Of a stretch of 12,896 nt of DNA, positions 1 through 12,896 are shown in pieces. Positions within the stretch are counted from its first letter, which is position 1. The number at the start of each line of letters is the position of its first letter. This DNA is from a virus (Duplodnaviria; Heunggongvirae; Uroviricota; Caudoviricetes). Location: positions 1 through 12,896 of IMG/VR virus record IMGVR_UViG_2700989170_000001; one strand, 5' to 3'. The notes beneath the pieces are model-generated. The model saw nothing but the letters and a program-made list of their open reading frames with translations. It was not told where the DNA came from and made no database searches. The position numbers and the translations under genes were made by a program.

Positions 1-50
1 CAGGCTACTGTGTTTAGTAATCAGATTTGTTCGTGACCGATATGCACGGG

Positions 51-84
51 CAAAACGGCAGGAGGTTGTTAGCGCGACCTCCTG
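51..84 (-). terminator. Candidate intrinsic terminator in the late-operon leader (tR'-like)
   Basis: On the minus strand there is a perfect 8-bp stem CAGGAGGT/ACCTCCTG (plus 59-66 and 77-84) with a 10-nt loop, followed by CCGTTTTG (plus 51-58). The U-tract is short and set 3 nt from the stem. It lies about 345 nt downstream of the Q stop. Confidence 0.35.
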
Positions 85-371
85 TCACCCGCTTTCACGA
101 AGATCATGTGTAGAAGGCCGCAGCATAACTATCACTGATGAATTCAGGACATCCAGTGGCTACGGCTCAGTTTGGATTGTGGCGACCGGTGCTGATCTCC
201 GGTTTGCTGCAACTGCCTACAGCGGGCTACGTGGCCACACCGAATCCAGCGAAAGATTCTTGCCCTTACACATCAGCCTGTGCATTCACCACAACGATAA
301 GAGCACTGCGCGGCACCTTTAACCAATTCCGCGAGGTCTGCGGGTTCAATGCTCTTACCTGTTGTGCAAAT

Positions 372-412
372 AAAAAAGCCACCGTTGCAACTTAAGAGTC
401 ACTAACGGCAGC
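372..412 (-). terminator. Candidate intrinsic terminator just downstream of Q
   Basis: Minus-strand RNA would form a 9-bp stem GCUGCCGUU/AACGGUGGC (two G-U pairs) with a 17-nt loop, followed directly by UUUUUU (plus 372-377). The large loop makes this uncertain. Confidence 0.3.
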
Positions 413-429
413 TTACCTTCTAATTATGG

Positions 430-948
430 CTAAATGGATAATTGCATGTCAAGGCTTTTAACAGCAATATGCTTAACTTTCTCAACACGTTTACGCATTT
501 TGAAAGCATTTTGCATTGGCTGGTACAAAACAAATAACGACGCTTTCAGGATATCGTCAATTTCGTTTCTACAGGTTGCCAGTGAAGGTTTTCTCCATCC
601 CTCGCCACCACGTCCACACATCTTGCGTGGCTTTGCAGTCGCGTGATAGTAGGATGCAATTGCTCGCTTAGATGAACCATGAGCGTAGTAGCTGAGGAGG
701 ATGCCAAAGGCTTTCTTGTCAATGTACATGACGGAATCGACGACCTGAGAAATCAACATTCCATCATCATCATTACACATTGGCCTTGTCATAACTCTTC
801 CCGGCTCTACGCTCTCCATGAACTTCGCTATTACGCTGCTCATGCGCTTTTCCAGACGACCTGAATAAACCCATGCGCCCCACAGTTCAAGCCATCCATT
901 CAGCCAATCGTGCTGCTCTTTGGTGAGGTTTAGTTCTCTTATGCTCAT
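430..948 (-). CDS. Late-gene antitermination protein Q (Phage_antitermQ-type, 172 aa)
   Basis: The ORF has motifs I recall from the QuuD/933W-type Q family (WGAW, CNDDDGM, LLSYY). It has an SD GAGGGGA 5 nt before the ATG at 948, and its ATG overlaps the ninH stop (ATGA). It is the last gene of the rightward operon, followed by a non-coding leader, as expected for Q. Confidence 0.7.
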   Translation of the reverse strand: MSIRELNLTKEQHDWLNGWLELWGAWVYSGRLEKRMSSVIAKFMESVEPGRVMTRPMCNDDDGMLISQVVDSVMYIDKKAFGILLSYYAHGSSKRAIASYYHATAKPRKMCGRGGEGWRKPSLATCRNEIDDILKASLFVLYQPMQNAFKMRKRVEKVKHIAVKSLDMQLSI

Positions 949-1133
949 CGTCTTCCCCTCTTGCCCTGTTTGACCATCAGGACGCCGTTAACTATTACGT
1001 GACGTTCGCCTTTGCTGTCTCGGTTGTACTTGAGCACTGTTCCTCTTGCACAGGAAAGCATCCTCGCCACTTCGGTCTGATTTCCTCGTGTCTGGATAAG
1101 AAGCTCTGGTATCGTTTGAATTGTGGAGTTCAT
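945..1133 (-). CDS. ninH: NinH-like small DNA-binding protein (62 aa)
   Basis: The motif TIPELLIQTRGNQTEVARMLSCARGTV...IVNGVLMV resembles lambda NinH as I recall it (KTIPDML...GNQTEVARRLKCSRGTV). Its start overlaps the rusA stop (ATGA) and it sits just upstream of Q, as in lambda. Confidence 0.7.
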   Translation of the reverse strand: MNSTIQTIPELLIQTRGNQTEVARMLSCARGTVLKYNRDSKGERHVIVNGVLMVKQGKRGRR

Positions 1134-1492
1134 ACGTTCTCCAGTTCGGTGATTTTTATTCCAAGCCGTCCGCCTGGTACTTTCACACCACGAATTACGC
1201 GAATGTCATCGAATTGCTCGTCGTCTTCCGCAAATCCGGCGTGGATAAGGGAGTCGAGTAAACCTTTCAGGATGTTGTCGAGGTCGCGGCGGCGGGAGTC
1301 TGGAACGTCTGCGATGACTTTGATGCGGAGTCGTGATTTGGTGAAAATGTCTAACTTGAGTTGGCGGATGATTTGCTGAACGTCTTTTCGGTATTTCTGG
1401 CCTTTATCGCTGATGTAGTATTGACTCCCCCGTCTTCGCCAGTAGGTGTTCACCGACGGCGGGTAAGGAAGCGCAAACTGATATTCGTTCAT
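1130..1492 (-). CDS. rusA: Holliday-junction resolvase RusA (120 aa)
   Basis: The protein is 120 aa with RusA-like features (LPYPPSVNTYW, DVPDSRRRDLDNILKGLLDSL, GGRLGIKITE). It lies in the nin region, abutting the YbcO-like gene. Confidence 0.85.
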   Translation of the reverse strand: MNEYQFALPYPPSVNTYWRRRGSQYYISDKGQKYRKDVQQIIRQLKLDIFTKSRLRIKVIADVPDSRRRDLDNILKGLLDSLIHAGFAEDDEQFDDIRVIRGVKVPGGRLGIKITELENV

Positions 1493-1779
1493 GGCTTAAT
1501 CTTCCCCTCCTTCAGCAGTATCGCCTGCGTCCTGATCACGCCTTCGAGGTGGTAAAGTCTGGCGTCTTTGTTGTCGAGATTATGGGTGCGTCGGTCGATC
1601 TCCGCGTGGCAGTCACTACAAGCCCATGCGCCGATCAGGTCGTCAGGCTTCATTCCCGTTCCGCAAATTCCAGCCATCCGGTAATGTGCCAGAACTGTAG
1701 TTTCAGGATTGCCATTGCATACGCCGTAAATACGTACCTGGCATTCTCTGCCGCGTGCTTCTTTGCGTAGATTAGCCAT
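1489..1779 (-). CDS. YbcO/NinX-like Cys-rich protein (DUF1364-type, putative nuclease, 96 aa)
   Basis: The motifs ARGRECQVRIYGVCNGNPETTVLAH and CSDCHAEIDRRTH match the YbcO-like family that precedes rusA in lambdoid prophages. A GGAGG RBS precedes the ATG, which overlaps the antirepressor stop (TAATG). Confidence 0.7.
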   Translation of the reverse strand: MANLRKEARGRECQVRIYGVCNGNPETTVLAHYRMAGICGTGMKPDDLIGAWACSDCHAEIDRRTHNLDNKDARLYHLEGVIRTQAILLKEGKIKP

Positions 1780-2501
1780 TAAGCAGCCTCCCCTGTTACT
1801 TTCAGCATTCCGTTATCGAGCAGCTTTCTGGTCAGCCACTGTTGACCACGCCCGGTGATTTTTGTGGTGAACGATATCTGTATTCCGTGATTTGTGTTGA
1901 CCGCTGTTTCTTTCACTGTGAAATAGCCGCGATCCATATATTCCTGCATTGGCACATTGCGCCGGGAACCTGAAGCAATAAGGATTTTGTGATCACGCAT
2001 CCACGCAAACAGTTTGTTTTGACCAATACCAACAACCTTTGCAAAGTTTCCAATCAAAATTCCGCTGGCCTCGCCAACGCGATCGGCAAACTCAACTTTA
2101 GGTGCGGCAATTGCGAGCTGGTTTTCCAGTTGCATTTTCTGCTCAGCAAGATCAGCAGCAAGGCGCAACGCTTCTGGTAGCGTTTTTGGGATATTAACCG
2201 CAGTTTCTTCAAGCTCTCGCCAACGGTCAACAAGACGAGCGGTGAATTCCGGCGACAACTGGGCTACAACGACAATACTGTCTCGCTTTCCTTGTTCGCC
2301 TTCGAAGACGTAATGCTCGTACTGAACACTGAACCCTAAGTTATTGATTCTTTCGGAAACCTCAATTTGAGGAAGCCGGATAACACCATTTTTAGCCAGC
2401 GTTTCGATGGTACGTTTCACATTGTCATGACGCTTACCCACCAACTCAGCGATTTCAATGCTTGTCATTTTGATGGCATTGCCATTTATTAACTCATTCA
2501 T
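1779..2501 (-). CDS. Phage antirepressor / regulatory protein (Rha-like N-terminus, KilA-C/ANT-like C-terminus, 240 aa)
   Basis: The N-terminus (MTSIEIAELVGKRHDNVKRTIETL) is Rha-family-like and the C-terminus (GNFAKVVGIGQNKLFAWMRDHKILIASGSRRNVPMQEYMDRGYF) is ANT/KilA-C-like. An SD GAGGAA lies 7 nt upstream. It is inserted between ninF and the YbcO-like gene. Confidence 0.7.
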   Translation of the reverse strand: MNELINGNAIKMTSIEIAELVGKRHDNVKRTIETLAKNGVIRLPQIEVSERINNLGFSVQYEHYVFEGEQGKRDSIVVVAQLSPEFTARLVDRWRELEETAVNIPKTLPEALRLAADLAEQKMQLENQLAIAAPKVEFADRVGEASGILIGNFAKVVGIGQNKLFAWMRDHKILIASGSRRNVPMQEYMDRGYFTVKETAVNTNHGIQISFTTKITGRGQQWLTRKLLDNGMLKVTGEAA

Positions 2502-2664
2502 CGTCTTCTTCCTCGTACATTGAGCTATTCGGATCGCTCATCAGTTCTGCGCAGCAATCGGAGCACACGTGAACTTCCAGCACATGCAGTTTCTGACCGC
2601 AGTTAGCGCACGTTAAAGCCCGCTCGACGCTTTCTTGTTCGTAACTTCGATTTGGGTCAATCAC
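2494..2664 (-). CDS. ninF: NinF-like small Cys-rich protein (56 aa from GTG 2664; alternative ATG start at 2688)
   Basis: The C-terminus SYEQESVERALTCANCGQKLHVLEVHVCSDCCAELMSDPNSS resembles lambda NinF as I recall it. The GTG at 2664 has an upstream GAGGA and overlaps the ninE stop (GTGA). The ORF track extends this frame to 2955, but that stretch overlaps ninD and ninE and is unlikely to be translated. Confidence 0.65.
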   Translation of the reverse strand: MIDPNRSYEQESVERALTCANCGQKLHVLEVHVCSDCCAELMSDPNSSMYEEEDDE

Positions 2665-2837
2665 CTTGTTTTCCTCATGCGGTTCCATTTGGCCTGTAAC
2701 AGCCCGTAGACATAATCGAATGTCTTTACCTGGCTTTCTGTGGGGATTGGTTTCTTGCGGGATTTGGTGCGTTTGGTAGGAGTAAAAATCAGGTTGTCTA
2801 ACGCTATTTGAGTAATACTTCGTCGCTGTCTCGCCAC
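2661..2837 (-). CDS. ninE: NinE-like protein (58 aa, GTG start)
   Basis: I translated this frame by hand: [58 protein letters not shown]. It resembles lambda NinE as I recall it (RRQRRSIT...KPIPKESDVKTFNY...RKTR). There is no in-frame ATG; the GTG at 2837 is preceded by AAGGAGGA. It is absent from the ORF track because it is short and starts with GTG. Confidence 0.55.
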
Positions 2838-2977
2838 ACGTCCTCCTTTTCCTGCGGTAGTGGTAAAACTCCTGTTGGTGTTCTTTCACACCGGAGACAC
2901 CATCGATTCCAGTAAGGTTGATTTGGTCGGAAGCGGTTATCTTCTTTGCATTCACCGCACCGATAACATCGCATCAT
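2804..2977 (-). CDS. ninD: NinD-like small zinc-finger protein (57 aa)
   Basis: The sequence [14 protein letters not shown]...WCLRCERTP has two CxxC pairs. Its ATG at 2977-2975 overlaps the ninB TGA (ATGA). Its size and position match lambda ninD; the family assignment is from memory. Confidence 0.5.
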
Positions 2978-3414
2978 GCAGCCCGATCTCCCCATCGCGC
3001 TTTCCATTCGAGAGCCAGTCGCGCTTCGTCTGACCACTTAACGCCACGCTCTGTACCGAATGCCTGTATAAGCTCTAATAGCTCCGCAAATTCGCTTACA
3101 CGCATCCTGCTGGTTGACTGGCCTATTACCACAAAGCCATTCCCGGCAAGGTTAGGAACAACGTCCTGCTGCTTTAATGCTGCGGTAAACACACACTTCC
3201 AGCTTTCTGCATCCAGCCAGCGACCATGCCATTCAACCTGACGCGAAACGTCACCAAGGCAAGCCCAAAGCTTCCGATTTTGGTCTAAGCTGCGGTTGCG
3301 CTCCTGAATGGTTACTACGATTGGTTTGGTTGGGTCTGGAAGAATTTGCTGTACCGCGTGAATAGCGTTTTGCTGATGTGCTGGGGATCGAATTTCAAAG
3401 GTTAGTTTTTTCAT
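2974..3414 (-). CDS. ninB: Recombination protein NinB (Orf family, 146 aa)
   Basis: The 146-aa product ([34 protein letters not shown]...) appears essentially identical to lambda NinB as I recall it. Confidence 0.9.
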
Positions 3415-3607
3415 GACTTCCCTCTCTAACAGATTTCAGGTTATTCCACTCCGTTACCGCACTGCGATAATTCGCGGCCGCCACAGCGGCGTGGTTAGCG
3501 CAGTAGATTTGGCACCCGTTCTCCATGTCGAATATTGTCGGTGATTTTCCGCATTTACATTTTTTGGCACGCGGTGCGTCTGAACACATTCCGTTAACGG
3601 TGTCCAT
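3395..3607 (-). CDS. Hypothetical Cys-rich small protein (70 aa) at the position of lambda ren
   Basis: The ORF has a strong RBS (GAGGGGGA 5 nt upstream) and several Cys residues (CSDAPRAKKCKCG...GCQIYCANH). It overlaps the ninB start by 20 nt and follows a terminator hairpin. I recognise no family. Confidence 0.45.
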   Translation of the reverse strand: MDTVNGMCSDAPRAKKCKCGKSPTIFDMENGCQIYCANHAAVAAANYRSAVTEWNNLKSVREGSHEKTNL

Positions 3608-3630
3608 CAGGATCCCCCTCGTTCTTAATC

Positions 3631-3662
3631 CAATAAAAAAGGGCTACTGTGTAAATAGCCCC
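3631..3662 (-). terminator. Intrinsic terminator downstream of the helicase gene (tR2-like position)
   Basis: Minus-strand stem GGGCUA/UAGCCC (plus 3641-3646 and 3656-3661) with a 9-nt loop, followed by UUUUUUAUU (plus 3631-3640). It lies between the helicase stop and the next ORF. Confidence 0.5.
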
Positions 3663-3691
3663 TGTTATTAGCTCAGTGATGTAGATGGTCA

Positions 3692-5128
3692 TCAGAATCC
3701 TCCTTTCTTCTTGGACTGCGGCTCCTCGCGTTCACGGCGGCGCATTTCAGCAGACTGTTGGTCTGTGTCATAAATAGCGCCATTTGCCTGAATGCAATAC
3801 ACCGTGCCGGTATTGCCATGACGATTGAGACGAAGGATTAGTTCGGTTTCACCAGGTGGAACACTGTCATCAAAAGCACCTTCACGATGGATCCCCACCC
3901 AATAATCGCAATCCTGTTCAATCTGCCCTGTATCTCGTGAGTCACTTGGTAATGGGCGTTTATTGGTTCGGCTTTCCAGTGCGCGGTTAAGCTGCGTCAG
4001 AAGCACAACAACGCAATCAAGCTCTTTGGCAAGGTTCTTCAGTCCTTTGGTGATCATGCCGTAAGCAAGGTCGTTGCGATCGGCCTTCTCAGCGGTCATT
4101 AGTGTCAGGTAATCGACCAGAATCATGCCAACACATCCTTTTTCTCGCTTGATTCGACGGCTTTCGCTGACGATTTGAGCCAGAGATAATCCCGGCGTGT
4201 CGTCGATGTAAAGCAGGTCGATTTCACTCAAACGATTAGCTGTTTCGATCGCCCTGTTGAAGTCACCATCGTAATCACCCTGATAGCCGTCATCAGCGTC
4301 ATTTGTCGCCGGAAGGTAAAAAATATTCGGGTTAACACCAGACTTCTGCCCTACCAGTTTTTCCAGTATCTGGTCTCCTGGCATTTCAAGGCTGAACATC
4401 AGAGCGGGCTTTTTCTCATGCACTGCGCAGTTGATTGCCATCTGGCTGTATAGCGTCGTTTTCCCCATCTTAGGGCGAGCGCCAATGACAAACAGAGAGC
4501 CTTTCACCAGACCTTTCGGTGACAGCATCCTGTCCAGCGATGGGATCCCTGTGCTCATTCCCCGTTGTTCGCCTGATGGGTCAAATCGCTTCTCAAGGTC
4601 GCTAACCCAGTCTTCCATGACCTCACCAAATGAGCGAAGTCCGCGACGCGATCCGGTTTTTGCATGGTCTGTCAGTTGCGTGAAAATCGCCTGAATAGCT
4701 TCGTACTTCTGCGTTGCAGTCATTCCGTTGCGGGAATAGAGCAATTCCGTCGCTTCAGTCATGCGGTTGATGGCGTAGCGTTCCATTGCGGTTTCACGAA
4801 CCTGCATTGCATAGGCAACGATGTTTGCTGCGCTTGGCGTGTTCTTTGCGATCTCAGCGATATAAGCAAAACCGCCAACAGACACCGTTAACGATTTGCG
4901 CTCCAGTTCATCGAAAAGCGTCAGGCCATCTACTGGCTTTTGCTCCCGGTGCATTCTGGTTATTTCTTCGAAAAGAATTTTGTGTGGTCGGCTGTAAAAT
5001 GAATCAGGCTTCAGCATCGCCAGAACTTTCTGGACGCGCTCACTGCTGTCATCATCCAGAAGCAATCCACCAATCACCGCCTGCTCTGCCTCGATGCTAT
5101 GGGGCGGCGCATAAAAATTATCGGTCAT
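3692..5128 (-). CDS. DnaB-family replicative helicase (P-loop; P22 gp12-like), about 478 aa
   Basis: The N-terminus has the DnaB-type motif PPHSIEAEQAVIGGLL; Walker A is GARPKMGKT; a Walker B-like ILVDYLTLM follows. The ATG at 5128 has SD GAGGGTG upstream; the ORF-track start at 5143 is a GTG. The start overlaps the stop of the O-like gene by 11 nt. Confidence 0.9.
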   Translation of the reverse strand: MTDNFYAPPHSIEAEQAVIGGLLLDDDSSERVQKVLAMLKPDSFYSRPHKILFEEITRMHREQKPVDGLTLFDELERKSLTVSVGGFAYIAEIAKNTPSAANIVAYAMQVRETAMERYAINRMTEATELLYSRNGMTATQKYEAIQAIFTQLTDHAKTGSRRGLRSFGEVMEDWVSDLEKRFDPSGEQRGMSTGIPSLDRMLSPKGLVKGSLFVIGARPKMGKTTLYSQMAINCAVHEKKPALMFSLEMPGDQILEKLVGQKSGVNPNIFYLPATNDADDGYQGDYDGDFNRAIETANRLSEIDLLYIDDTPGLSLAQIVSESRRIKREKGCVGMILVDYLTLMTAEKADRNDLAYGMITKGLKNLAKELDCVVVLLTQLNRALESRTNKRPLPSDSRDTGQIEQDCDYWVGIHREGAFDDSVPPGETELILRLNRHGNTGTVYCIQANGAIYDTDQQSAEMRRREREEPQSKKKGGF

Positions 5129-5879
5129 CGTGTTCACCCTCACGAACTTTCAGGTAGGTATTATCGTTAAGCAGGAAATCAAATCCCTTTTTGTGCCAGA
5201 CGGTTCCGCGTTGATGGTTTGGACGCTCTTCGAACATCCATCGGCAATTTTCGCCTACGTAGCTCAAATAATTTCTCCAGTCCTGCATCGTGAACCCATG
5301 CCCGTCAAGCTGGCGGGTTATCACTCCGGCTTTGCGCCAGAACGTTCGGATCTGGTTTTTACGCTTGTCATTCAGTGCGCGGATTCTTGGCGCTTCAGGA
5401 AGGATTTCGTGGTAAGCATCGACAACATCCTGACAGCTAACGGAAGGTTTTTTCTTGTCAGACTTTTTGTCTGCTGTGGCACTCTCTAATACGTCAGTAT
5501 TAGAGATATTATTTATATTATTGTTTATGGACAACCGTTGGACAACCGTTGGACAATTTTTTGCCTGAAAATCGTCATATTTAACGATTGTAAACAGGCT
5601 AAATTTCTTCCCCATCGAGCAAATATTAAGCATCCCTTTCGACTCAAAAGTCCGTAATAAGCTCCGAACTTTGTTGTCTGGAATGAATGTTTCTCTGACC
5701 AGCGACGGGCGTCCAGTTATCATCTGACCGCGATCAACAGTTATCGGACCGATATCCGTATTGACGACAGTAGATTCGTGATTAGCCTTGAGGATTAAGT
5801 GAAGCCAAAGATGTACTGCCTGAGAGTCCTTATAGAGCCTGCTGTCCATAAACTGGCGGTGTATAGAGACATACCCCAT
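5118..5879 (-). CDS. Replication initiation protein (O-like organiser, with internal iterons), about 253 aa
   Basis: The ORF sits immediately upstream of, and is coupled to, the helicase. It contains direct repeats and an AT-rich tract, like ori within lambda O. The favoured start is the ATG at 5879 (MGYVSIH...), which has AGGAGG 8 nt upstream; the ORF-track start at 5942 has no comparable RBS. Confidence 0.75.
   Translation of the reverse strand: MGYVSIHRQFMDSRLYKDSQAVHLWLHLILKANHESTVVNTDIGPITVDRGQMITGRPSLVRETFIPDNKVRSLLRTFESKGMLNICSMGKKFSLFTIVKYDDFQAKNCPTVVQRLSINNNINNISNTDVLESATADKKSDKKKPSVSCQDVVDAYHEILPEAPRIRALNDKRKNQIRTFWRKAGVITRQLDGHGFTMQDWRNYLSYVGENCRWMFEERPNHQRGTVWHKKGFDFLLNDNTYLKVREGEHDDR
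5528..5556. repeat. Iteron-like direct repeats (probable replication origin) inside the O-like gene
   Basis: GGACAACCGTT occurs twice in tandem, followed by a partial third copy GGACAA and then TTTTTT. The upstream flank (5498-5527) is AT-rich. This matches the lambda arrangement of iterons plus an AT-rich region within the initiator gene. Confidence 0.6.
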
Positions 5880-5928
5880 ACTGGATGCCTCCTGATGTTG
5901 TACAGGGTTATGCCTGTAATCAGCTAAC

Positions 5929-6090
5929 TTAACGACGCCCATGTTTCACTCCTGCTTTGGCTAGTCTGTAAACACCAACAAGGCGCTCTGCGAACGCCCT
6001 GTTATTTGCTGCGGCTACCACTAATCCCTCAGGTGAATCAGGGTGTCGAATCTCTTCTTTTTCCTGGTATTTCTTACGACGTTTTGTCAT
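5929..6090 (-). CDS. Hypothetical small basic protein (53 aa) between cII and the replication gene
   Basis: I translated this by hand: MTKRRKKYQEKEEIRHPDSPEGLVVAAANNRAFAERLVGVYRLAKAGVKHGRR. AGGAG lies 5 nt upstream of the ATG. It is below the ORF-track size cutoff. It occupies the position where lambda O begins and overlaps the OOP promoter on the other strand. Confidence 0.35.
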   Translation of the reverse strand: MTKRRKKYQEKEEIRHPDSPEGLVVAAANNRAFAERLVGVYRLAKAGVKHGRR

Positions 6091-6100
6091 AATTACTCCT

Positions 6101-6177
6101 GTGGATTGATCCAGTAATGACCTCAGAATTCCATCTGGATTTGTTCAGAACGCTCGGTTGCCTCCGGGCGTTTTTTA
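6101..6177 (+). ncRNA. oop: OOP-like antisense RNA with t0-type intrinsic terminator
   Basis: The plus strand has a 7-bp stem CGCUCGG/CCGGGCG (6151-6157 and 6164-6170, one G-U pair) followed by TTTTTTATT. The sequence from 6101 (GTGGATTGATCCAGTAATGACCTCAGAATTCCATCTGGATTTGTTCAGAACGCTCGGTTGCCTCCGGGCGTTTTTTATT) closely matches lambda oop/t0 as I recall it. It is antisense to the 3' end of cII. Confidence 0.6.
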
Positions 6178-6419
6178 TTGGTGAGTCCATCAAGCGCATA
6201 CTTAAAAGCCCTGCTAATCGGACTGATGTCTGATGCCATTCCGAAAGCACACAAGACCGAAGCAATAAATCTCCAGTCCGTTCTGCTTATCTTCGATTCA
6301 TGACAGCCAATCATCTTTGCCAGACCGCGCTGGGTAAGCGTTGACAGGTTGATGAGTAAATCTGTTTCTGCGCGATCAACGTCGCGCTGTGATAGTTTGC
6401 TGTAACTTGTTTGTTCCAT
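6123..6419 (-). CDS. cII: Transcriptional activator CII (98 aa)
   Basis: The C-terminus LTNKKRPEATERSEQIQMEF and the HTH region KMIGCHESKISR resemble lambda CII. It sits between cro and the replication genes. Confidence 0.85.
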   Translation of the reverse strand: MEQTSYSKLSQRDVDRAETDLLINLSTLTQRGLAKMIGCHESKISRTDWRFIASVLCAFGMASDISPISRAFKYALDGLTNKKRPEATERSEQIQMEF

Positions 6420-6483
6420 TTCTTACTATTTCCATAGGTAAATAATCACTAATACTCATCTTTCGATGAGTGATTAATTAGTT

Positions 6484-6517
6484 ACCGCGTTGTCGGCGGT
6501 GCAGATTGATAAAGAGC
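6484..6517 (-). promoter_or_regulatory. nutR-like N-utilisation site (boxA plus boxB hairpin)
   Basis: Read on the minus strand: boxA GCTCTTTAT (plus 6509-6517), an 8-nt spacer, then boxB ACCGCCGACAACGCGGT (plus 6484-6500; 5-bp stem ACCGC/GCGGT with a GACAA loop core, P22-like as recalled). It lies between the cro stop and cII. Confidence 0.6.
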
Positions 6518-6528
6518 TGATCCGCTTA

Positions 6529-6744
6529 TTAAGCGGCTTTGTGTTCCGGCGGGAACACGTCATCAAGACTGACTTTTGCGCCTAACTTGTTTAGGCACGC
6601 AACAAGAGCACGGCATGTTTTAAGGTCTGGGAAGCGACGACCAGATTCCCAATGTCCGATAGCTCCCTGTGTGCATCCAACCGCCTTAGCAAGTGTTGTT
6701 TGAGAGATATTCAGTGACTCTCGATATTTTCGTAGGTTGCTCAT
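6529..6744 (-). CDS. cro: Cro-like HTH repressor (71 aa)
   Basis: The HTH is QTTLAKAVGCTQGAIGHWESG. The ATG at 6744 has GGAGGG upstream. It is divergent from cI and followed by nutR and cII. The ORF-track start at 6915 would overlap the operators and cI. Confidence 0.75.
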   Translation of the reverse strand: MSNLRKYRESLNISQTTLAKAVGCTQGAIGHWESGRRFPDLKTCRALVACLNKLGAKVSLDDVFPPEHKAA

Positions 6745-6770
6745 ATGCCCTCCATAGTAACCATGAAACA

Positions 6771-6849
6771 ATAATACGATATGTACTTTTGGAATGCAAA
6801 CAAAAAATACATCTTGTGCATGGATGGTTTTAGTACAGAGCGTAATAAT
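6771..6849. promoter_or_regulatory. Right operator/promoter region (OR with PR; PRM not located)
   Basis: PR candidate on the minus strand: -35 TTGCAT (plus 6794-6799), 17-bp spacer, -10 TATTAT (plus 6771-6776). Operator-like sites are TACGATATGTACTTT (6775-6789) and TTTAGTACAGAGCGTA (6829-6844), sharing the AGTACA-N3-CGTA core also seen in OL. Confidence 0.5.
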
Positions 6850-6861
6850 AAGGATATGAAG

Positions 6862-7515
6862 ATGAAATGGTATGAACTGGCTAGATCCAGAATGAAAGAA
6901 CTCGGCATAACTCAAGAGAAGTTAGCTGAAGAGCTTGGTATGACGCAGGGTGGAATTGGTCACTGGTTGCGCGGATCTCGTCATCCATCTCTTGACGAGA
7001 TTGGTGTGGTGTTTAAATACCTTGGTATTGATAACGTCTCATTCAACCACGACGGTACATTTTCACCTGTTGGCGAATACTCATCTGCCCCCGTTAAAAA
7101 ACAATATGAGTACCCTGTTTTTTCTCATGTTCAGGCCGGGATGTTCTCGCCTGAGCTTAGAACCTTTACCAAAGGTGATGCGGAGAGATGGGTCAGCACA
7201 ACCAAAAAAGCCAGTGATTGTGCGTTTTGGCTTGAAGTTGAAGGTAATTCCATGACCGCACCAACAGGATCCAAGCCAAGCTTTCCTGACGGGATGTTAA
7301 TTCTCGTTGACCCTGAGCAGGCTGTTGAGCCAGGTGATTTCTGCATAGCCAGACTTGGTGGTGACGAGTTTACCTTCAAGAAACTGATCAGGGATAGCGG
7401 TCAGGTGTTCCTACAACCACTAAACCCGCAATATCCAATGATCCCATGCAATGATAGCTGTTCCGTAGTAGGGAAAGTTATCGCCAGCCAGTGGCCTGAA
7501 GAGACATTTAGTTAA
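6862..7515 (+). CDS. cI: CI-type prophage repressor (N-terminal HTH, C-terminal S24/LexA-like autopeptidase), about 217 aa
   Basis: The HTH is [23 protein letters not shown]. There is an Ala-Gly site (VQAGMF), a GNSMTAP serine motif and a downstream FKKL lysine motif. The ATG at 6862 has AAGGA 7 nt upstream (6856 is an alternative). The ORF-track start at 6781 would lie inside the operator region. Confidence 0.85.
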
Positions 7516-7546
7516 CAGCCTCACCACTCTAAAACACACAACAATA

Positions 7547-7575
7547 ACCCGACCTTAGCGTCGGGTTTTCTTTTT
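7547..7575 (+). terminator. Intrinsic terminator downstream of cI
   Basis: A 7-bp perfect stem ACCCGAC/GTCGGGT (7547-7553 and 7560-7566) with a 6-nt loop is followed by TTTCTTTTT. Confidence 0.6.
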
Positions 7576-7626
7576 CCAAAATATAAATCAATAAAATACA
7601 AAGTGTTATAAAAAACTAACCACATT

Positions 7627-7669
7627 TAGAACATTTTGTATTAACTCAATAAAGTACACATCGTACTAT
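7627..7669 (+). promoter_or_regulatory. Left operator/promoter region (OL with PL)
   Basis: PL candidate: -35 TTAACT (7641-7646), 17-bp spacer, -10 TACTAT (7664-7669). The operator AAAGTACACATCGTA (7651-7665) is, in reverse complement, a 14/15 match to the OR site at 6775-6789. A weaker site is AGAACATTTTGTA (7628-7640). Confidence 0.5.
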
Positions 7670-7715
7670 TTAGCCATCAGCAGGAAGCTGGAAGCCAAAC
7701 GGAACAGATTGGCAG

Positions 7716-7749
7716 GCTCTTTAACTTCGATGGGGCGCTGACAAAGCGC
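7716..7749 (+). promoter_or_regulatory. nutL-like site (boxA plus boxB)
   Basis: boxA GCTCTTTAA (7716-7724) is followed by boxB GCGCTGACAAAGCGC (7735-7749; stem GCGCU/AGCGC with a GACAA pentaloop, as I recall for P22 boxB). It lies in the PL leader, about 120 nt upstream of N. Confidence 0.6.
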
Positions 7750-7868
7750 AAACAGATACCAAACGAGATGGGTTTGGCGGTGATGTGAATTGCAGCTGCA
7801 ACGACAGCAACCAGAAGATCAGCACCTGGCGCATCACCACCAAAGCCATTTCACATGAGGAAAATATC

Positions 7869-8177
7869 ATGACGGTAATCGTGTACGGGAAATCAACATT
7901 TGCAGGAAATGCCAAAACTCGCCGTCATGAGCGGCGCAGAAAGCTGGCTATCGAGCGTGATGCTATATGCAACATCATCGATTCGATCTTCGGCACAGAC
8001 AGTGAGGAACCTGTTCAGGAAGCCCCGAGAAAACGTTTAATCCTTTCTGAAAAAGCAATATCACTCGGCAACATTCGTAACCAAAATACCGACGAATGCA
8101 GTGGAAGTATTTGCCTGCCAAACGTAGCTCTTTACGCGGCAGGCTACCGGAAATCAAAACAACTGACAGCCAGGTAA
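7869..8177 (+). CDS. N: Antitermination protein N (P22 gp24-like, arginine-rich motif), 102 aa
   Basis: The N-terminus MTVIVYGKSTFAGNAKTRRHERRRKLAIER carries the arginine-rich RNA-binding motif and resembles P22 N as I recall it. The ATG at 7869 has GAGGA upstream. The ORF-track start at 7785 would overlap nutL. Confidence 0.8.
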   Translation: MTVIVYGKSTFAGNAKTRRHERRRKLAIERDAICNIIDSIFGTDSEEPVQEAPRKRLILSEKAISLGNIRNQNTDECSGSICLPNVALYAAGYRKSKQLTAR

Positions 8178-8180
8178 GTG

Positions 8181-8405
8181 ATGAATCAGACATACATTCC
8201 ATCATGCTTGAGAAATCTGCCAAAGCAGAAAGCAAAGCCCCGCAAGCAAGCCATAAAGGACGCTAAGGCAGAGGTTATTGATCAAGCAATACAATTGCTC
8301 AGGGAGGAGTTAAGAAGTGGCAAGCTCGAAGGAATGATGATGCCTTATCAGCGCGGATATCTATCGGCTATTAGTAAGTTGGAAGTATTGAAGAGTGAAT
8401 TATGA
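8181..8405 (+). CDS. Hypothetical protein (74 aa) immediately downstream of N
   Basis: AGGT lies 5 nt upstream of the ATG at 8181. The ORF is charged and lysine-rich, runs in the direction of the PL operon, and I recognise no family. Confidence 0.5.
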   Translation: MNQTYIPSCLRNLPKQKAKPRKQAIKDAKAEVIDQAIQLLREELRSGKLEGMMMPYQRGYLSAISKLEVLKSEL

Positions 8406-8467
8406 ACTATCTGGAATTTCCGGATGGTTCATTGTTTTGGCAGCAAACCACTTATTTGAGGTGAGAT

Positions 8468-8554
8468 ATGGAAGAAGAATTTGAAGAGTTCGAAGAGCAT
8501 CCTCAGGATGTGATGGAACAATACCAGGACTATCCTTATGACTACGACTATTGA
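8468..8554 (+). CDS. Candidate small acidic peptide (28 aa: MEEEFEEFEEHPQDVMEQYQDYPYDYDY)
   Basis: A strong SD GAGGTGA lies 3-4 nt upstream of the ATG. The upstream 20-aa ORF (8402-8464) overlaps the orf74 stop by ATGA and ends inside this SD. It is too small to call with confidence. Confidence 0.3.
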   Translation: MEEEFEEFEEHPQDVMEQYQDYPYDYDY

Positions 8555-8771
8555 TAAGAATCAATGGAGTGGACAATACGAACGACGGCAATGATTGCCA
8601 GAGAACTTGGTAAACAGAACAACAAAGCTGCCTGATAGTGGCCTTTATTTTTGGCATAAATAACAGAATAAACACTGCACTGTGTATTCATTCCAACGAG
8701 TGAATACACGGAGCAATGTCGCTCGTAACTAAACAGGAGCCGACTTGTTCTGATTATTGGAAATCTTCTTT

Positions 8772-8795
8772 GCCCTCCAGTGTGAGGGCTTTTTT
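8772..8795 (+). terminator. Intrinsic terminator upstream of the cIII-like gene (tL-type)
   Basis: A perfect 6-bp stem GCCCTC/GAGGGC (8772-8777 and 8784-8789) with a 6-nt loop is followed by TTTTTAT. Confidence 0.55.
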
Positions 8796-8861
8796 ATATG
8801 CATACCAATAACGCTTCATTCGAGGCGTTTTCGTTATGCAATCAAACAGAAGGAGCATCCT

Positions 8862-9032
8862 ATGCAACAGTTCGCTATTGCAGGGGCGGCATCGGTTCGC
8901 CCTTTCAACCCAATTTTATCGGTACAGCATTCACGAAAAAATATTTTAACCGGAGCAGACTTTAAACAACCAAGAATGAAAAGTTTGCTCGAAAAGCTTT
9001 GGGATATTTTGAAACAACAAGGCCGTCCATGA
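8862..9032 (+). CDS. CIII-like protein (putative FtsH inhibitor), 56 aa
   Basis: The N-terminus MQQFAIAG and the segment SLLEKLWDILKQQG resemble lambda CIII as I recall it (MQYAIAG...ESLLERITRKLRDGWKRLIDILNQPG). AAGGAG lies 6 nt upstream of the ATG. The ORF-track TTG start at 8757 would run through the terminator. Confidence 0.5.
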   Translation: MQQFAIAGAASVRPFNPILSVQHSRKNILTGADFKQPRMKSLLEKLWDILKQQGRP

Positions 9033-9136
9033 GTTTTACAGATAACTGGTCAGACGAAGAATTCATTCGTCAGATGAACAAAATGCTCAATCAGCACAAA
9101 GAACAGGAGAAAGATGATGATTCTGACTCTGAATGA
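9029..9136 (+). CDS. Candidate small ORF (35 aa) overlapping the cIII-like stop (kil-like position)
   Basis: Its ATG overlaps the cIII-like TGA (ATGA). The product is MSFTDNWSDEEFIRQMNKMLNQHKEQEKDDDSDSE. Its 3' end overlaps the start of the next ORF in another frame. Confidence 0.3.
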   Translation: MSFTDNWSDEEFIRQMNKMLNQHKEQEKDDDSDSE

Positions 9137-9425
9137 TAAGCGTGAAATATCGCAAATCATCGCAAGTTTTACCGATGATGATTACGAACGAATCAACAGT
9201 GAAGTTGATCGCCTCTGCAAACGTTGCGACCCAATAAGCGAAATGCTTCGCTCATATAAACCAGATGAACACACTAAGGACGCTATCGACTGGCTGGAAG
9301 ATGATGACTGTAACTATCAGGAAAAAGCCGCTGAATGGTTCTGGGATGCAATAACCGAAAGAGTTAAGGCTGAATATGCCTTCGCAATATTCAAACGCAG
9401 ACACATTTTTGGAGAAGCTGCATGA
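9114..9425 (+). CDS. Hypothetical acidic protein (103 aa) immediately upstream of the recombinase
   Basis: AGGAGAAAG lies upstream of the ATG, and its stop overlaps the RecT ATG (ATGA). By position it corresponds to lambda gam or P22 abc, but I see no sequence similarity to support that. Confidence 0.6.
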   Translation: MMILTLNDKREISQIIASFTDDDYERINSEVDRLCKRCDPISEMLRSYKPDEHTKDAIDWLEDDDCNYQEKAAEWFWDAITERVKAEYAFAIFKRRHIFGEAA

Positions 9426-10324
9426 GCAATATCGTTGAATTCGTTAAACAGCAGGAGCAGTTATTCTGCGGAGCATTGACTGAACAGACGGTGACATGGG
9501 CTAAGGAAAGCCAGTTTGCAATTCAGTATTTCCAGAAAAACGATTACCTGGCTAAAACAGCACTGGCAAATCCAACCAGCGCACAGAACGCCATCATCAA
9601 TGTTGCGGCGATCGGCATCACCTTAAACCCGGCCAGCAAACTGGCTTATCTGGTTCCTCGCGACGGCATGGTGTGCCTTGATATCAGTTACATGGGATTA
9701 CTTCATCTTGCGCAATCGACAGGATCAATTAAGTGGGGGCAATGCAAACTGGTGTACTCAAACGACACCTATGAATCAAATGGCCTTGATTCAGCACCAA
9801 CCCACAAATACAACGCATTTGGTGAGCGAGGCTCTATTGTTGGAGGTTATTGCACGGTTAAAACAGCAGATGGTGACTACCTGACTGAAGAAATGAGTCT
9901 GGCAGAAATTAAAGCTGTGGAAGCAACGAGCAAGGCAAAGAATGGACCGTGGAAAACATTCTGGGAAGAGATGGCGCGTAAAACAATAGTTAAACGCGCC
10001 AGCAAATACTGGCCTAAAGCCCAGCGACTGGATAATGCCATTCACCTGCTTAACGAAGATGAAGGTATGCATCAGGAACCAGTTATGCCGCACAAATCAG
10101 AGGAAGATATCCGCGAAGATGAACGGAAACGCCAGCAGGAAATAATGGATAAAGCACAACTTCTTTGCGATGAAATGGCTCAGGCAGAAAACATGGATGA
10201 TTTGAAGCGATATTTTGCAGAAGCATATCGCCTGACATCTGGAATGAAATTGCAGCAGAACGTACAAGCCATTTACATAGAATGCAAAGCGAAACTGGAG
10301 GTTGCCAGTGAGCAAACTGTATGA
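9422..10324 (+). CDS. RecT-family single-strand annealing protein (300 aa)
   Basis: The central region (AIINVAAIGITLNPASKLAYLVPRDG, GPWKTFWEEMARKTIVKRASKYWP) looks RecT-like. It sits in the early-left operon where lambdoid phages carry their recombinase. Confidence 0.75.
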   Translation: MSNIVEFVKQQEQLFCGALTEQTVTWAKESQFAIQYFQKNDYLAKTALANPTSAQNAIINVAAIGITLNPASKLAYLVPRDGMVCLDISYMGLLHLAQSTGSIKWGQCKLVYSNDTYESNGLDSAPTHKYNAFGERGSIVGGYCTVKTADGDYLTEEMSLAEIKAVEATSKAKNGPWKTFWEEMARKTIVKRASKYWPKAQRLDNAIHLLNEDEGMHQEPVMPHKSEEDIREDERKRQQEIMDKAQLLCDEMAQAENMDDLKRYFAEAYRLTSGMKLQQNVQAIYIECKAKLEVASEQTV

Positions 10325-10790
10325 AATAGCCAATGAATACGCAAAGCTGATGGATTCAGATTTAGAGCCAGAGATGATTGCTGACACAATAGAAGGCATG
10401 GAAGGAGAATTTACCGATAAAATAGAGCAACTTCTTGCCATTATTAAAAATGAATATGGTTATGCTGAACGCCTCAAGGACGAGGCAAAGTCACTAAATG
10501 AGCGAGCCGCAGTAATTCAAAATAAGATTGACAGCATTATGGCGTATATAGCGTCATCGCTTGAAATGGTTGGCAAGAAAAAGATTCGAGCAGGTATTCA
10601 CCAGGTAACAATCCGCAAACCGTCAGAAACTGTAGAAATCATCGACTCAAGCGCCCTTCCTCCTGAATACGTTGAGTTCGAAACGACAATTAAAGCCGAC
10701 AAACTGGCAATCAAACACCAACTAAAAGCAGGAATAAATATCCCCGGTGCTCAACTCAAAGTTGGGAAACCTTCACTTCTTATCAAATAA
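10308..10790 (+). CDS. Gp157-like protein (recombination-module accessory), about 160 aa
   Basis: The protein starts MSKLYEIANEYAKL and contains ADTIEGMEGEFTDK and INIPGAQL, which fits the Gp157 family commonly found next to phage annealases. The GTG at 10308 has GGAG 7 nt upstream and lies in the last codons of RecT. The ORF-track TTG at 10302 is an alternative. Confidence 0.6.
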   Translation: MSKLYEIANEYAKLMDSDLEPEMIADTIEGMEGEFTDKIEQLLAIIKNEYGYAERLKDEAKSLNERAAVIQNKIDSIMAYIASSLEMVGKKKIRAGIHQVTIRKPSETVEIIDSSALPPEYVEFETTIKADKLAIKHQLKAGINIPGAQLKVGKPSLLIK

Positions 10791-10801
10791 CGGTATCGCC
10801 T

Positions 10802-11116
10802 ATGAAAAAGACTCCATGGGAGAAATGGGAAGTCGATTTCTTGCGCGAGGTAGCGGCGACAATGCCAGTTGAAGTTATCGCAGAAAAACTGGAAAGGACT
10901 GAAAAAGCAGTAATGGCGAAAGCAACAAGGATTGGCGCTGACATTGTTAGCCGACTTCGTGGAAGACGATGGACAAGAGCCGAAGTATCACTTTTCGGTA
11001 AGTTCTCCGCAGAAGAAATAGCAATTGCAACCTGCCGCTCAATTTATTCAGTAAGAGCTATGCGATACAAGCTAAAAAAACTCGATGAAGAAAGAGCAGG
11101 CATACGAATAAATTAA
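10802..11116 (+). CDS. Hypothetical protein (104 aa) with two internally similar helix-rich halves
   Basis: The two halves are alike ([25 protein letters not shown]... and [25 protein letters not shown]...), suggesting a tandem HTH-like domain. The RBS is weak. I recognise no family. Confidence 0.55.
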
Positions 11117-11132
11117 CAAAGAGGAATTTACC

Positions 11133-11300
11133 ATGAGAGGACTTGCATACAATCCCGGCATTCTTCCGGCAGAAATGATTATTCGCCAACGCGTAAAGCC
11201 AATGCCATCGAGAGAGGAATTGCTTAAGAGAAATTCTTTTCCATCAGTGAATCAAAACAAATATCTGAATGCGATGTGGCGTAAAGGAGGCAACCAGTGA
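11133..11300 (+). CDS. Hypothetical small protein (55 aa)
   Basis: GAGGA lies 7 nt upstream of the ATG at 11133. The stop overlaps the GTG start of the next gene (GTGA). It is below the ORF-track cutoff and was found by hand translation. Confidence 0.45.
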
Positions 11301-11869
11301 GCGAGATTAATTACCAGGCACTGCGTGAGGCCGCAGAGAAGGCTACGAAAGGTCAGTGGGCTGTTGAATTCGACGATGAGATTTACTCCACTGACGGCGT
11401 GAACCATGAGCAAATAGCTATGGTGTTCAGTGAAAACGAATCGCGTGATGCTGCTTTCATCGCCGCAGCCAATCCCGCTACCGTCTTGGCGCTGCTGGAT
11501 GAGCTGGAAAGAAACCAGCAATACATCAAATCCCGCGACCAGGAGAACGAGGAAATTGCGCTAACGGTAGGGAAGCTGCGCGTTGAGCTGGAAGCCGCAG
11601 AAGCGCTGAATAAACACTTGGAGTTAGCAATCCGAAAAGCTGATGGTTGTAGCGAGGCGTTAAGGAGAAAAACAGAAGCCGCAGAGAAGCGCATCGCTGA
11701 ACTGGAGGCGCGGGAGGTTGTGCTTCCGCAATGCTATAGCATGTTGCATCGCGTCGATTTTGACGAGCCTTACCACACTGAAATGGTTTACAGGCAGCAT
11801 CAGGTTCTTGAGGCACTGCACAACGCTGGAATAAACGTCACCGAAGCATGTAAAGGAGAGGCATCATGA
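11297..11869 (+). CDS. Ead/Ea22-like protein (190 aa)
   Basis: The N-terminus [18 protein letters not shown]...[21 protein letters not shown] is typical of the Ead/Ea22-like family of lambdoid early-left operons. The GTG start has AAGGAGG 7 nt upstream. Confidence 0.7.
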
Positions 11870-12540
11870 GCACTATCACAAGAGAATGGCTGCAGCAGGC
11901 TATCAACGATTATGAAAGCGTTCGTGATGAGCTTCCTTTCGGGCTTGATGATTACCAGGGGAATATCCTGGCTGCCCTGCGTATTGCACTGGCATCGCTG
12001 GAAGCAGAGCCTATTGGCGCATTCCACATTGCAGAACAGCAAGTTGACGGCACAAGTGACTACATCAAGGATGGGGAATGGCCTATTGATAATGGGATTA
12101 TTGAAGTCTACGCCGCTCCGCCAGTACCGGTAGTACCTGCTGCATTACCTGAGAACGACGATGAGGATGGGCATGACATTGATTATCTTGAGCCATCTGA
12201 AGTTTACGCGCTTGGGCGAACAGCTGGCTGGAACGCCTGCCGCGCCGCCATGCTTCAGGGTAAATCCGAACAACCACAAAACGCACAACAAAATATTCCG
12301 GAAAATATTCCCGGTGGCAACTCTCCGGTAACTCCTGATGGTTGGATAAGCTGTAGTGATCGAATGCCGGAAGACACCAAAATGTTACTGGCATTTAGTC
12401 AAGGTGAAATCGTGGCCGCATATTGGAACTGGGTTGCAAATCCAATTGATTACAAAAAATATAGAGCTTTCACGTATTTATCAGGATATATCTTGGATGA
12501 CGTAACTCACTGGATGCCGCTACCAGAGCCTCCACTTTGA
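11866..12540 (+). CDS. DUF551-like prophage protein (224 aa)
   Basis: The C-terminus DGWISCSDRMPE...THWMPLPEPP looks like the DUF551 domain. The ATG overlaps the upstream stop (ATGA). The middle is acidic and Pro-rich. Confidence 0.65.
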   Translation: MSTITREWLQQAINDYESVRDELPFGLDDYQGNILAALRIALASLEAEPIGAFHIAEQQVDGTSDYIKDGEWPIDNGIIEVYAAPPVPVVPAALPENDDEDGHDIDYLEPSEVYALGRTAGWNACRAAMLQGKSEQPQNAQQNIPENIPGGNSPVTPDGWISCSDRMPEDTKMLLAFSQGEIVAAYWNWVANPIDYKKYRAFTYLSGYILDDVTHWMPLPEPPL

Positions 12541-12636
12541 AAGCGAAGCTTATACATATCTTTTACATCAGCAATCTATTGTTAATCTCCAATCAATGTT
12601 ACGTTGTCATCTCACTCATGCTTTGGAGGTAGTGAT

Positions 12637-12816
12637 ATGTCTTGTCCAAAATGCGGTTCTGGAAATATTGCAAAAGAAAAAACAATGCGTGGATGGTCTG
12701 GTGATTATGTGTGCTGCGATTGCGGATACAACGACTCTAAAGACGCATTTGGAGAGCGTGGTAAAAACGAGTTTGTCAAAATTAATAAAGAACGCGAAGG
12801 CAACGAAAAAAGCTAA
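12637..12816 (+). CDS. Small zinc-ribbon protein (59 aa; CPKCG ... CCDCG)
   Basis: GGAGG lies 7 nt upstream of the ATG at 12637. Two Cys pairs (CPKC and CCDC) are spaced for a zinc ribbon. The ORF-track start at 12604 has no RBS. Confidence 0.5.
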   Translation: MSCPKCGSGNIAKEKTMRGWSGDYVCCDCGYNDSKDAFGERGKNEFVKINKEREGNEKS

Positions 12817-12896
12817 TTTATTTATTCATATATGAAAACAATGTAACCAATATTCGATTTGAAGAACTGAAAGAACACCAAGCCGCCTGATGGCGG

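Follow-up and report, generated by a model that had tools for sequence, protein, structure and literature searches.

The question raised by this locus is what a phage protein does when family labels call it an antirepressor, whereas the original depositors of its homologues named it for DNA binding. The gene lies at positions 1779-2501 of the window, i.e., the whole 12,896-nucleotide stretch analyzed here (positions 1 to 12,896 of IMG/VR virus record IMGVR_UViG_2700989170_000001, Caudoviricetes), and its sequence identifies the open reading frame (ORF) as the already known and named lambdoid-phage gene roi. Our reading, to which we assign a probability of roughly 0.6, is that roi encodes a two-domain lambdoid regulator and that a dyad-symmetric sequence inside the gene is its self-operator, probably serving autoregulation. 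The gene contains the following elements (aa, amino acids; nt, nucleotides):

1779-2501, minus strand: roi coding sequence, a 240-aa ORF with an ATG start (from the ORF listing)
2205-2468, minus strand: N-terminal Rha-type winged helix-turn-helix domain, aa 12-99 (Pfam Phage_pRha)
2391-2429, minus strand: predicted recognition helix, aa 25-37, with N27 at 2421-2423, R30 at 2412-2414 and T34 at 2400-2402
2360-2372: 13-bp perfect dyad CCTCAA-A-TTGAGG, gene nt 130-142, codons 44-47, at the start of the wing; the predicted Roi operator
2337-2349, minus strand: IHF consensus AATCAATAACTTA, gene nt 153-165, codons 51-55, at the wing tip, 10 bp from the dyad
2262-2441, minus strand: divergent "specificity cassette", gene nt 61-240, aa 21-80, with the amino-acid differences at about aa 21-66
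2082-2201, minus strand: two-state linker, gene nt 301-420, a predicted long helix with two sequence states (synonymous divergence, dS, 1.6-2.8 between states)
1818-2126, minus strand: C-terminal ANT/KilAC domain, aa 126-228 (Pfam ANT, 115 bits, E 2.7e-33)

Identification as roi is based on tblastn identities of 98.8% to HK620, 92.9% to H-19B and 87.6% to HK022, all at 100% coverage, with further identities of 98.3% to CUS-3 and 97.9% to the Shiga toxin (Stx) phages PA28, P27 and phage 86. The gene order ninB-ninE-ninF-roi-(gp66/YbcO)-rusA-ninH-Q is identical in the window, HK022 and HK620. Homologues were detected in 1,642 of the 50,697 phage records searched by tblastn, placing the roi feature far beyond chance, and among complete E. 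coli genomes 1,110 of 5,426 carry roi DNA, under the PGAP name "phage antirepressor KilAC domain-containing protein". In the HK620 entry the product is labeled "DNA-binding protein Roi", the kind of name used by the original depositors, while RefSeq re-annotations read "anti-repressor Ant". The Rha-like N-terminus and ANT/KilA-C C-terminus proposed in the initial annotation were both recovered by a Pfam check above the curated cut-offs: PF03374 (ANT/KilAC) scored 115 bits against a gathering threshold of 25.3 over aa 126-228, and PF09669 (Phage_pRha) 36.3 bits against 29.9 over aa 12-99, at full model length. The NCBIfam model TIGR02681 (phage_pRha) was not reached by the window Roi (17.8 bits, cut-off 45.95), and PHROG 63, "anti-repressor Ant", matched at 5.6e-99. 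Roi has been cited as a DNA-binding protein whose context is conserved among Stx phages (PMC3430580), and IS629 insertions in roi are described for certain O157 Stx2a phages, with a proposed effect on toxin output (PMC4587872). Truncated roi products are also frequent in E. coli (P0126-P0133 and P0123), among them a 148-aa Rha-only form found on 262 contigs and in E. coli W (P0132) and a Rha-NinH fusion (P0123).

The evidence for an intragenic operator comes from a comparison of 204 roi loci, drawn from three IMG/VR scans in addition to the window, HK022 and HK620. Their proteins fall into six cassette types: A (window and HK620), B (found with the Salmonella/E. coli query), C (HK022 and HK97), D, E and F. 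In type A the dyad has a perfect 6-1-6 architecture, and the copy at 2360-2372 is the only one in the window with at most one mismatch. At the same codons type D carries CCTGCA-T-TGCAGG, type C the type-D dyad with one outer mismatch, and type B CCCCCA-A-TGGTGG. Fourteen distant homologues were added (phiP27 and relatives, two Klebsiella phages, APSE-1, two Acinetobacter phages, Psychrobacter Psymv2, Ralstonia Darius, three Vibrio phages including the lytic ICP1, and Edwardsiella GF-2), together with IMG/VR relatives of three homologues. By hand alignment, at least five of the six arm pairs are complementary at the aligned codons in 15 of 17 types, as against 0.55% of the other 13-mers in the same genes. 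In an automated run on 132 unique N-domains, 115 (87%) had such a dyad no more than 15 nt to either side of the aligned codon, compared with 15% in control windows of equal width; the offset was 0 in 71 cases and ±3 in 42. These 132 N-domains have a median pairwise identity of 47% and derive from phages of Escherichia, Klebsiella, Acinetobacter, Psychrobacter, Ralstonia and Vibrio.

Complementary arm pairs numbered 301 of 348, versus 179 ± 6.8 upon resampling of synonymous codons (maximum 205 in 3,000 trials), a difference of about 18 standard deviations; since the protein sequence was kept in the resampling, this excess indicates that the symmetry is selected at the DNA level. The symmetry is achieved via wobble bases matched to the second-codon positions of the partner codon, and co-variation occurs in all six arm pairs, including the innermost pair at the single central base (A-T, G-C and C-G), as expected of a dyad-symmetric protein-binding site. 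A scan for dyad copies within ±9 kb of roi across the 204 loci located the type-A cognate dyad at the roi position in 97 of 100 loci; the 1.5 Mb of type-A flanks contained only three further copies, and the cognate dyads of types C and D were seen nowhere else within that distance. Moreover, the dyad is intragenic in every gene setting seen, namely the nin region, the position just after cro in phiP27-like phages, APSE-1 and the lytic ICP1, and also where the C-terminus is not KilAC. Its presence inside the gene wherever the gene sits suggests a function tied to the gene itself.

A residue-to-base correspondence links the dyad to the protein. The AlphaFold2 (AF2) model of aa 1-112, built on a 56-sequence alignment, is a winged helix-turn-helix (predicted local distance difference test score, pLDDT, 82) with a strand at 11-13, helices at 14-21 and 25-37, a hairpin formed by 45-52 and 58-67, and helices at 68-82 and 84-102. 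Full-length Roi had no match in a PDB sequence search, the N-domain profile gave only weak winged helix-turn-helix matches against PDB (E 0.09-1), and Foldseek with the N-domain model found no PDB match at E ≤ 0.001. Among 59 unique helix/dyad pairs (44 helices, 48 dyads), residue 27 tracks dyad base 3 (N with T in 24/25, D with G in 13/13, S with A in 9/9, K with C in 6/6, H with C in 4/5), residue 30 tracks base 4 (R with C in 37/38, Q with C in 6/6, V or I with G in 10/10), and residue 34 tracks base 5 (R with C in 44/44; S, T, K, N, A or M with A in 14/14). Mutual information is maximal at exactly these three combinations, 27-3, 30-4 and 34-5, and the observed values were reached by no permutation. 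The code is combinatorial, with 20 residue triplets corresponding to 11 base triplets (e.g., NRR to TCC, NRS/T to TCA, SRR to ACC, SRT to ACA, DRR to GCC, KQR to CCC and NVR to TGC); because the three positions combine freely, linkage alone is hard-pressed as an explanation. Residues 27, 30 and 34 lie on one face of the helix, and the pairings fit textbook contacts between side chains and bases on the partner strand (Asn with A, Asp with C, and Lys, His or Arg with G). For the window, N27, R30 and T34 predict T-C-A, and the predicted site reads CC-TCA-A. These patterns strongly suggest that Roi-like proteins recognize a dyad embedded in their own wing-coding codons. In the strictly lytic Vibrio phage ICP1, the code also holds for gp112 (locus L216, 1180-1974), a Roi-like gene with helix DKVKQSMERL and intragenic dyad ACCCCAGTGGGGG.

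Variation between alleles is concentrated in the segment that contains the helix and the dyad. Among the six E. coli types, 10-28 of 30 nt per window are shared in the cassette region, as against 28-30 of 30 in the 3' half of the gene. At aa 21-66, dS is saturated and non-synonymous divergence (dN) is 0.18-0.67, with dN/dS of 0.14-0.58, whereas the KilAC part (aa 135-240) is nearly invariant in protein and about 97-100% identical in DNA between types (dS 0.03-0.13). Positive selection on the cassette was rejected on these values; dN/dS of 0.14-0.58 together with saturated dS suggests modules of ancient divergence within a gene that has been shared recently, rather than recent diversifying selection. 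In three phiP27-like loci (L204, L205 and L207, 1501-2208), a Rha-type N-domain with its dyad stands directly after cro and is fused to a non-KilAC C-terminal region, a fusion that suggests shuffling of the helix-plus-operator cassette between C-domains. Type E (L149 and four other loci, helix GNVRISIERL) has lost the left half-dyad at roi nt 130-165 (CCTCCAATGCAAA, 3/6 pairs) as well as the IHF consensus, and its right half-dyad still obeys the code (TGC). In the invariant part of roi, a near-dyad with three mismatches (ACTCAACTTTAGG, 2090-2102) is at chance level (4 matches versus 4.37 expected) and displays no co-variation.

The second element, the IHF consensus, has an unchanged position within the gene in five types (A, B, C, D and F), in surroundings that are only 50-80% identical, and the differences among types are limited to its four N positions (TAAC, TGAT and TGGG). 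It occurs at a fixed +23 from the dyad start in nine unique sequences, with six other consensus matches anywhere in 115 genes, and HK022 has its dyad CCTGCATTGCAGC and IHF motif AATCAATGATTTA at the same gene positions as the window. Clerget and Boccard (1996) reportedly described HK022 Roi as a helix-turn-helix protein binding a site within its own gene, near an IHF site, the binding being stabilized by IHF. Lytic growth of HK022 was reportedly blocked by Roi in IHF-deficient hosts, and point mutations in roi are said to have relieved the block. The motif at +23 fits this reported stabilization and IHF-minus phenotype. A comparable dependence is documented for the Rha proteins of phi80 and P22, which impair phage growth in hosts lacking IHF and whose genes are regulated by IHF (PMC4936722).

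Taken as a mechanism, the 13-bp dyad at 2360-2372 would very probably be the Roi binding site, with N27, R30 and T34 of the recognition helix most likely specifying the half-site bases T, C and A, and IHF would in all likelihood bend the DNA at 2337-2349, 10 bp from the dyad. A single cassette of about 180 bp would encode helix, wing, operator and IHF site and would very probably be swapped as a unit between phages. Bound Roi, together with IHF, may then form a roadblock that limits expression of roi and perhaps of ybcO-rusA-ninH-Q. An operator about 130 nt inside its own reading frame would allow roadblock control whatever the upstream promoter, and a site that travels with the gene suggests promoter-independent self-limitation, which would suit a module that moves between operons with a potentially toxic KilAC domain. 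Without IHF, control might fail and excess Roi might harm the infection. The invariant KilAC domain may be the effector, and its target a conserved partner, probably from the host, and not the variable CI repressors. To the broader proposition that Rha-type winged helix-turn-helix regulators carry their own operator in the wing codons, read by the 27/30/34 code, with specificity and target co-inherited as a cassette of about 180 bp, we give even odds.

Several points weigh against the self-operator reading. The dyad is missing from allele type E and from three distant homologues, a distance of 6 bp between half-site centers is unusual for a dimeric helix-turn-helix protein, and the compared sequences are phylogenetically related, so that the co-variation counts overstate the number of independent events. 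WATCARNNNNTTR has one perfect match in the 12.9-kb window against 1.43 expected and is not significant alone, and the motif at +23 is limited to the enterobacterial roi group, being absent from most non-enterobacterial relatives. The full-length AF2 model, made from a shallow alignment, reached a pLDDT of 39 and was not used. The roadblock or autoregulation step and the KilAC target, which we only infer, are the weaker parts of the scheme.

The nin-region setting of roi bears on what kind of regulator it can be, and three neighboring features are relevant:

2494-2664, minus strand: ninF (Pfam NinF, 3.7e-13), with a GTG start overlapping the ninE stop, as read from the sequence
1489-1779, minus strand: ybcO, a DUF1364 gene of 96 aa (Pfam YbcO, 1.4e-43)
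3639-3663, minus strand: tR2-like intrinsic terminator between P and the nin genes, with a 10-bp stem and a T run; the HK620 tR2 is annotated at the equivalent place

The roi start codon occupies 2499-2501 and the ninF ORF ends at 2494, giving an 8-nt overlap (2494-2501), and the roi TAA stop (1779-1781) shares one base with the ybcO ATG (1777-1779) to form TAATG. The ORF list and the sequence confirmed this overlap, the TAATG junction and the 240-aa ORF as first described, and a Shine-Dalgarno-like GAGGAAG is present 5' of the roi ATG. A consensus scan found no promoter-like site directly upstream of roi on the roi strand, and a terminator-like hairpin within roi (2063-2079) is at chance level (4 found versus 4.6 expected). 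By the lambda paradigm, its place downstream of the tR2-like terminator makes roi delayed-early and N-dependent. In lambda, ninG does directly follow ninF (ninF-ninG-ninH-ninI-Q), as the initial annotation had it, and the location given there for roi stands; roi is no substitute for ninG, however, for 34 of 196 related loci carry roi followed by ninG itself. The gene 3' of roi is ybcO in 159 of these loci, ninG in 34 and an HNH-endonuclease-like ORF in two, and a NinF gene lies upstream in 150 related loci; both the roi-ybcO and the roi-ninG arrangement occur in E. coli genomes. The gene roi is therefore an independent module, set between ninF and either junction-nuclease module. Given the established role of RusA and Rap as junction resolvases, rusA (with ybcO) is the more probable functional equivalent of ninG in this region. 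Between roi and ybcO, two loci (L070, 3142-3651, and L072) contain an HNH/NUMOD-like endonuclease ORF that looks like a homing-endonuclease insertion.

Other explanations of the dyad have to be set against this evidence. It might not be a Roi site at all but an RNA hairpin, a site bound by a different protein or simply a consequence of the encoded amino acids (a P-x-x-x motif), and the fairly conserved residues encoded by the dyad (e.g., PPM and PQI) would agree with the last of these. However, keeping the protein and resampling synonymous codons leaves 179 ± 6.8 pairs where 301 are observed, and the hairpin was ruled out by co-variation of the pair flanking the single central base, which would lie in the loop. 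In addition, the dyad bases follow, in a physically sensible code, helix residues encoded 30-60 nt away, and this explanation as a whole is very improbable. A related alternative accepts Roi binding but regards the protein as an ordinary trans-acting transcription factor with its main targets at other phage or host promoters, the intragenic dyad being a minor site or one of several. The N-domain model, a winged helix-turn-helix, would suit such a factor, and the dyad scan covered ±9 kb around roi, with host and distant late-region sites lying outside that range. Nevertheless, within that range copies away from roi are limited to three for type A and none for types C and D, the window holds a single dyad, and the dyad stays inside the gene from the nin region to the post-cro position, APSE and the lytic ICP1, which ties its function to the gene; we regard a mainly trans-acting role as unlikely.

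A different alternative concerns the C-terminal domain: Roi would inactivate its own or a co-resident heteroimmune CI-type repressor via ANT/KilAC and so promote induction. It is favored by the Pfam ANT and PHROG 63 matches, by the RefSeq name "anti-repressor Ant" and by the KilAC-bearing Ant1/2 of P1/P7, cited as genuine antirepressors in PMC9043618, but the original depositors call Roi a DNA-binding protein. A survey found an S24-type CI upstream of roi in 133 of 137 loci with more than 7 kb of upstream sequence, and clustering at 85% identity gave 15 cI types. Roi type A accompanies at least 14 of these, including the window's own type, types B and C each accompany ten or more, and several Roi types are found with every large CI cluster. 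The repressors vary while the domain supposed to bind them is invariant, and the variable part of Roi is unmatched to immunity, which removes the reasons for repressor binding without disproving it. Functional antirepressors are marked by an independent expression unit, and roi is instead translationally coupled within the delayed-early nin operon, past the tR2-like terminator; by the lambda paradigm, Roi would be made only after the phage's own repressor is lost. The name "ANT" derives from P1 Ant. The P22-type Ant families (AntA, P22_AR_N/C) were absent among Pfam matches at E ≤ 0.01, no antirepressor activity of any Roi was reported in the literature searched, and the KilAC of AriS inhibits induction instead of promoting it (PMC9043618). 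The earlier proposal of an antirepressor that affects induction or co-resident prophages is therefore not supported, its label having come from the Pfam/PHROG family name alone and Roi type being unmatched to cI; an antirepressor function appears distinctly unlikely.

The remainder of the window is typical mosaic, with a maximum coverage of about 70% by any phage or E. coli record. Pfam places NinB upstream of roi and RusA, NinH and antiterminator Q farther downstream, and the rest is a lambdoid early region with a DnaB-like P, an O-like initiator, CII, Cro, an S24-type CI, a P22-like N and RecT, among others. No PADLOC defense family matched the window (0 families), Rfam gave no family in it and ARAGORN no tRNA. 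At the 3' end of Q, a strong sigma-70-like promoter (423-452, minus strand; TTGACA-18 nt-CATAAT, 11/12) is probably the late promoter pR', and its qut region would lie within the window's first ~430 bases. The O-like replication initiator (5118-5942, minus strand) has no Pfam match at E ≤ 0.001 and falls in PHROG 345, "replication initiation O-like", its C-terminal half matching PHROG 24933 of unknown function. Two small Cys-rich, zinc-ribbon-like ORFs (3395-3607, minus strand, and 12604-12816, plus strand) match only the function-unknown PHROGs 6308 and 2945, respectively, and the ~600 bp at 8405-9000, downstream of N and a 75-aa ORF, contain no convincing ORF on the pL-operon strand and no Rfam family.

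Collectively, these results indicate that the flagged gene is common and already named, and that "antirepressor" is an annotation habit not to be taken as a function. Roi and Rha proteins are among the most frequent temperate-phage "regulators" of unknown mechanism, including those of Shiga-toxin phages, and the predicted operator, IHF site and residue-to-base code reduce the mechanism to a few gel-shift and reporter experiments. Inheritance as a cassette would explain why allele variation is restricted to one short segment, and the code with its dyad offers a small, re-programmable DNA-binding module. If true, the self-operator would constitute a promoter-independent, portable self-limiting switch ranging from lambdoid prophages to the lytic ICP1, and it would explain the old Roi/Rha phenotypes of no growth without IHF.

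The closest known system is the Roi of coliphage HK022 (Clerget and Boccard 1996, J Bacteriol 178:4077); HK620, HK97, H-19B, CUS-3 and 933W-type Stx phages have a gene of that name too. This Roi shares length, both domains and gene order with the window protein. However, HK022 and HK97 are type C and the window is type A, with helix SNVKVSIDRL versus DNVKRTIETL and dyad CCTGCA.TGCAGC versus CCTCAA.TTGAGG, so that the predicted DNA specificity differs. To our knowledge, and within the literature searched, neither a family-wide intragenic operator nor its recognition code is described, the single HK022 binding site reportedly being the only one on record, and a search of that literature for a Rha-family palindrome or operator gave nothing relevant. 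The Rha proteins of phi80 and P22 have an N-terminal domain family in common with Roi (Pfam Phage_pRha), and their genes lie in a late or immI position, unlike roi. They also belong to the same phenotype class, harmful without IHF, on published evidence for Rha (PMC4936722) and reportedly for Roi. pSK1 Par and RacA, winged helix-turn-helix proteins with short inverted repeats as binding sites, have no detectable relation to Roi (Foldseek E ≥ 0.1, profile versus PDB E ≥ 0.09) and a different biology, namely partition and chromosome anchoring. The antirepressor Ant of P1/P7, an immI-region product with expression control of its own, works by binding the C1 repressor. Ant1/Ant2 of P1/P7 and KilA of P1 share the C-terminal domain family with Roi, but their N-domain is reportedly Bro-N or KilA-N (in part after PMC9043618), whereas that of Roi is Rha. 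Listeria AriS and Staphylococcus phage phi11 Gp07 resemble Roi in combining a variable N-domain with a conserved C-terminal KilAC, although both belong to Firmicutes phages, carry AntA/AntB and Bro-N, respectively, and are only distant from Roi in sequence. AriS-like proteins join a constant KilAC to AntA/B, Bro-N or pRha N-domains, with pRha-KilAC variants listed, and in AriS the KilAC inhibits the host SOS response while the N-domain acts on the phage's own genes (PMC9043618). The KilA-C of Gp07 blocks cell division upon expression in E. coli (PMC5944126), and since both KilAC domains act on the host and not on repressors, they count in favor of a host-directed role for the KilAC of Roi.

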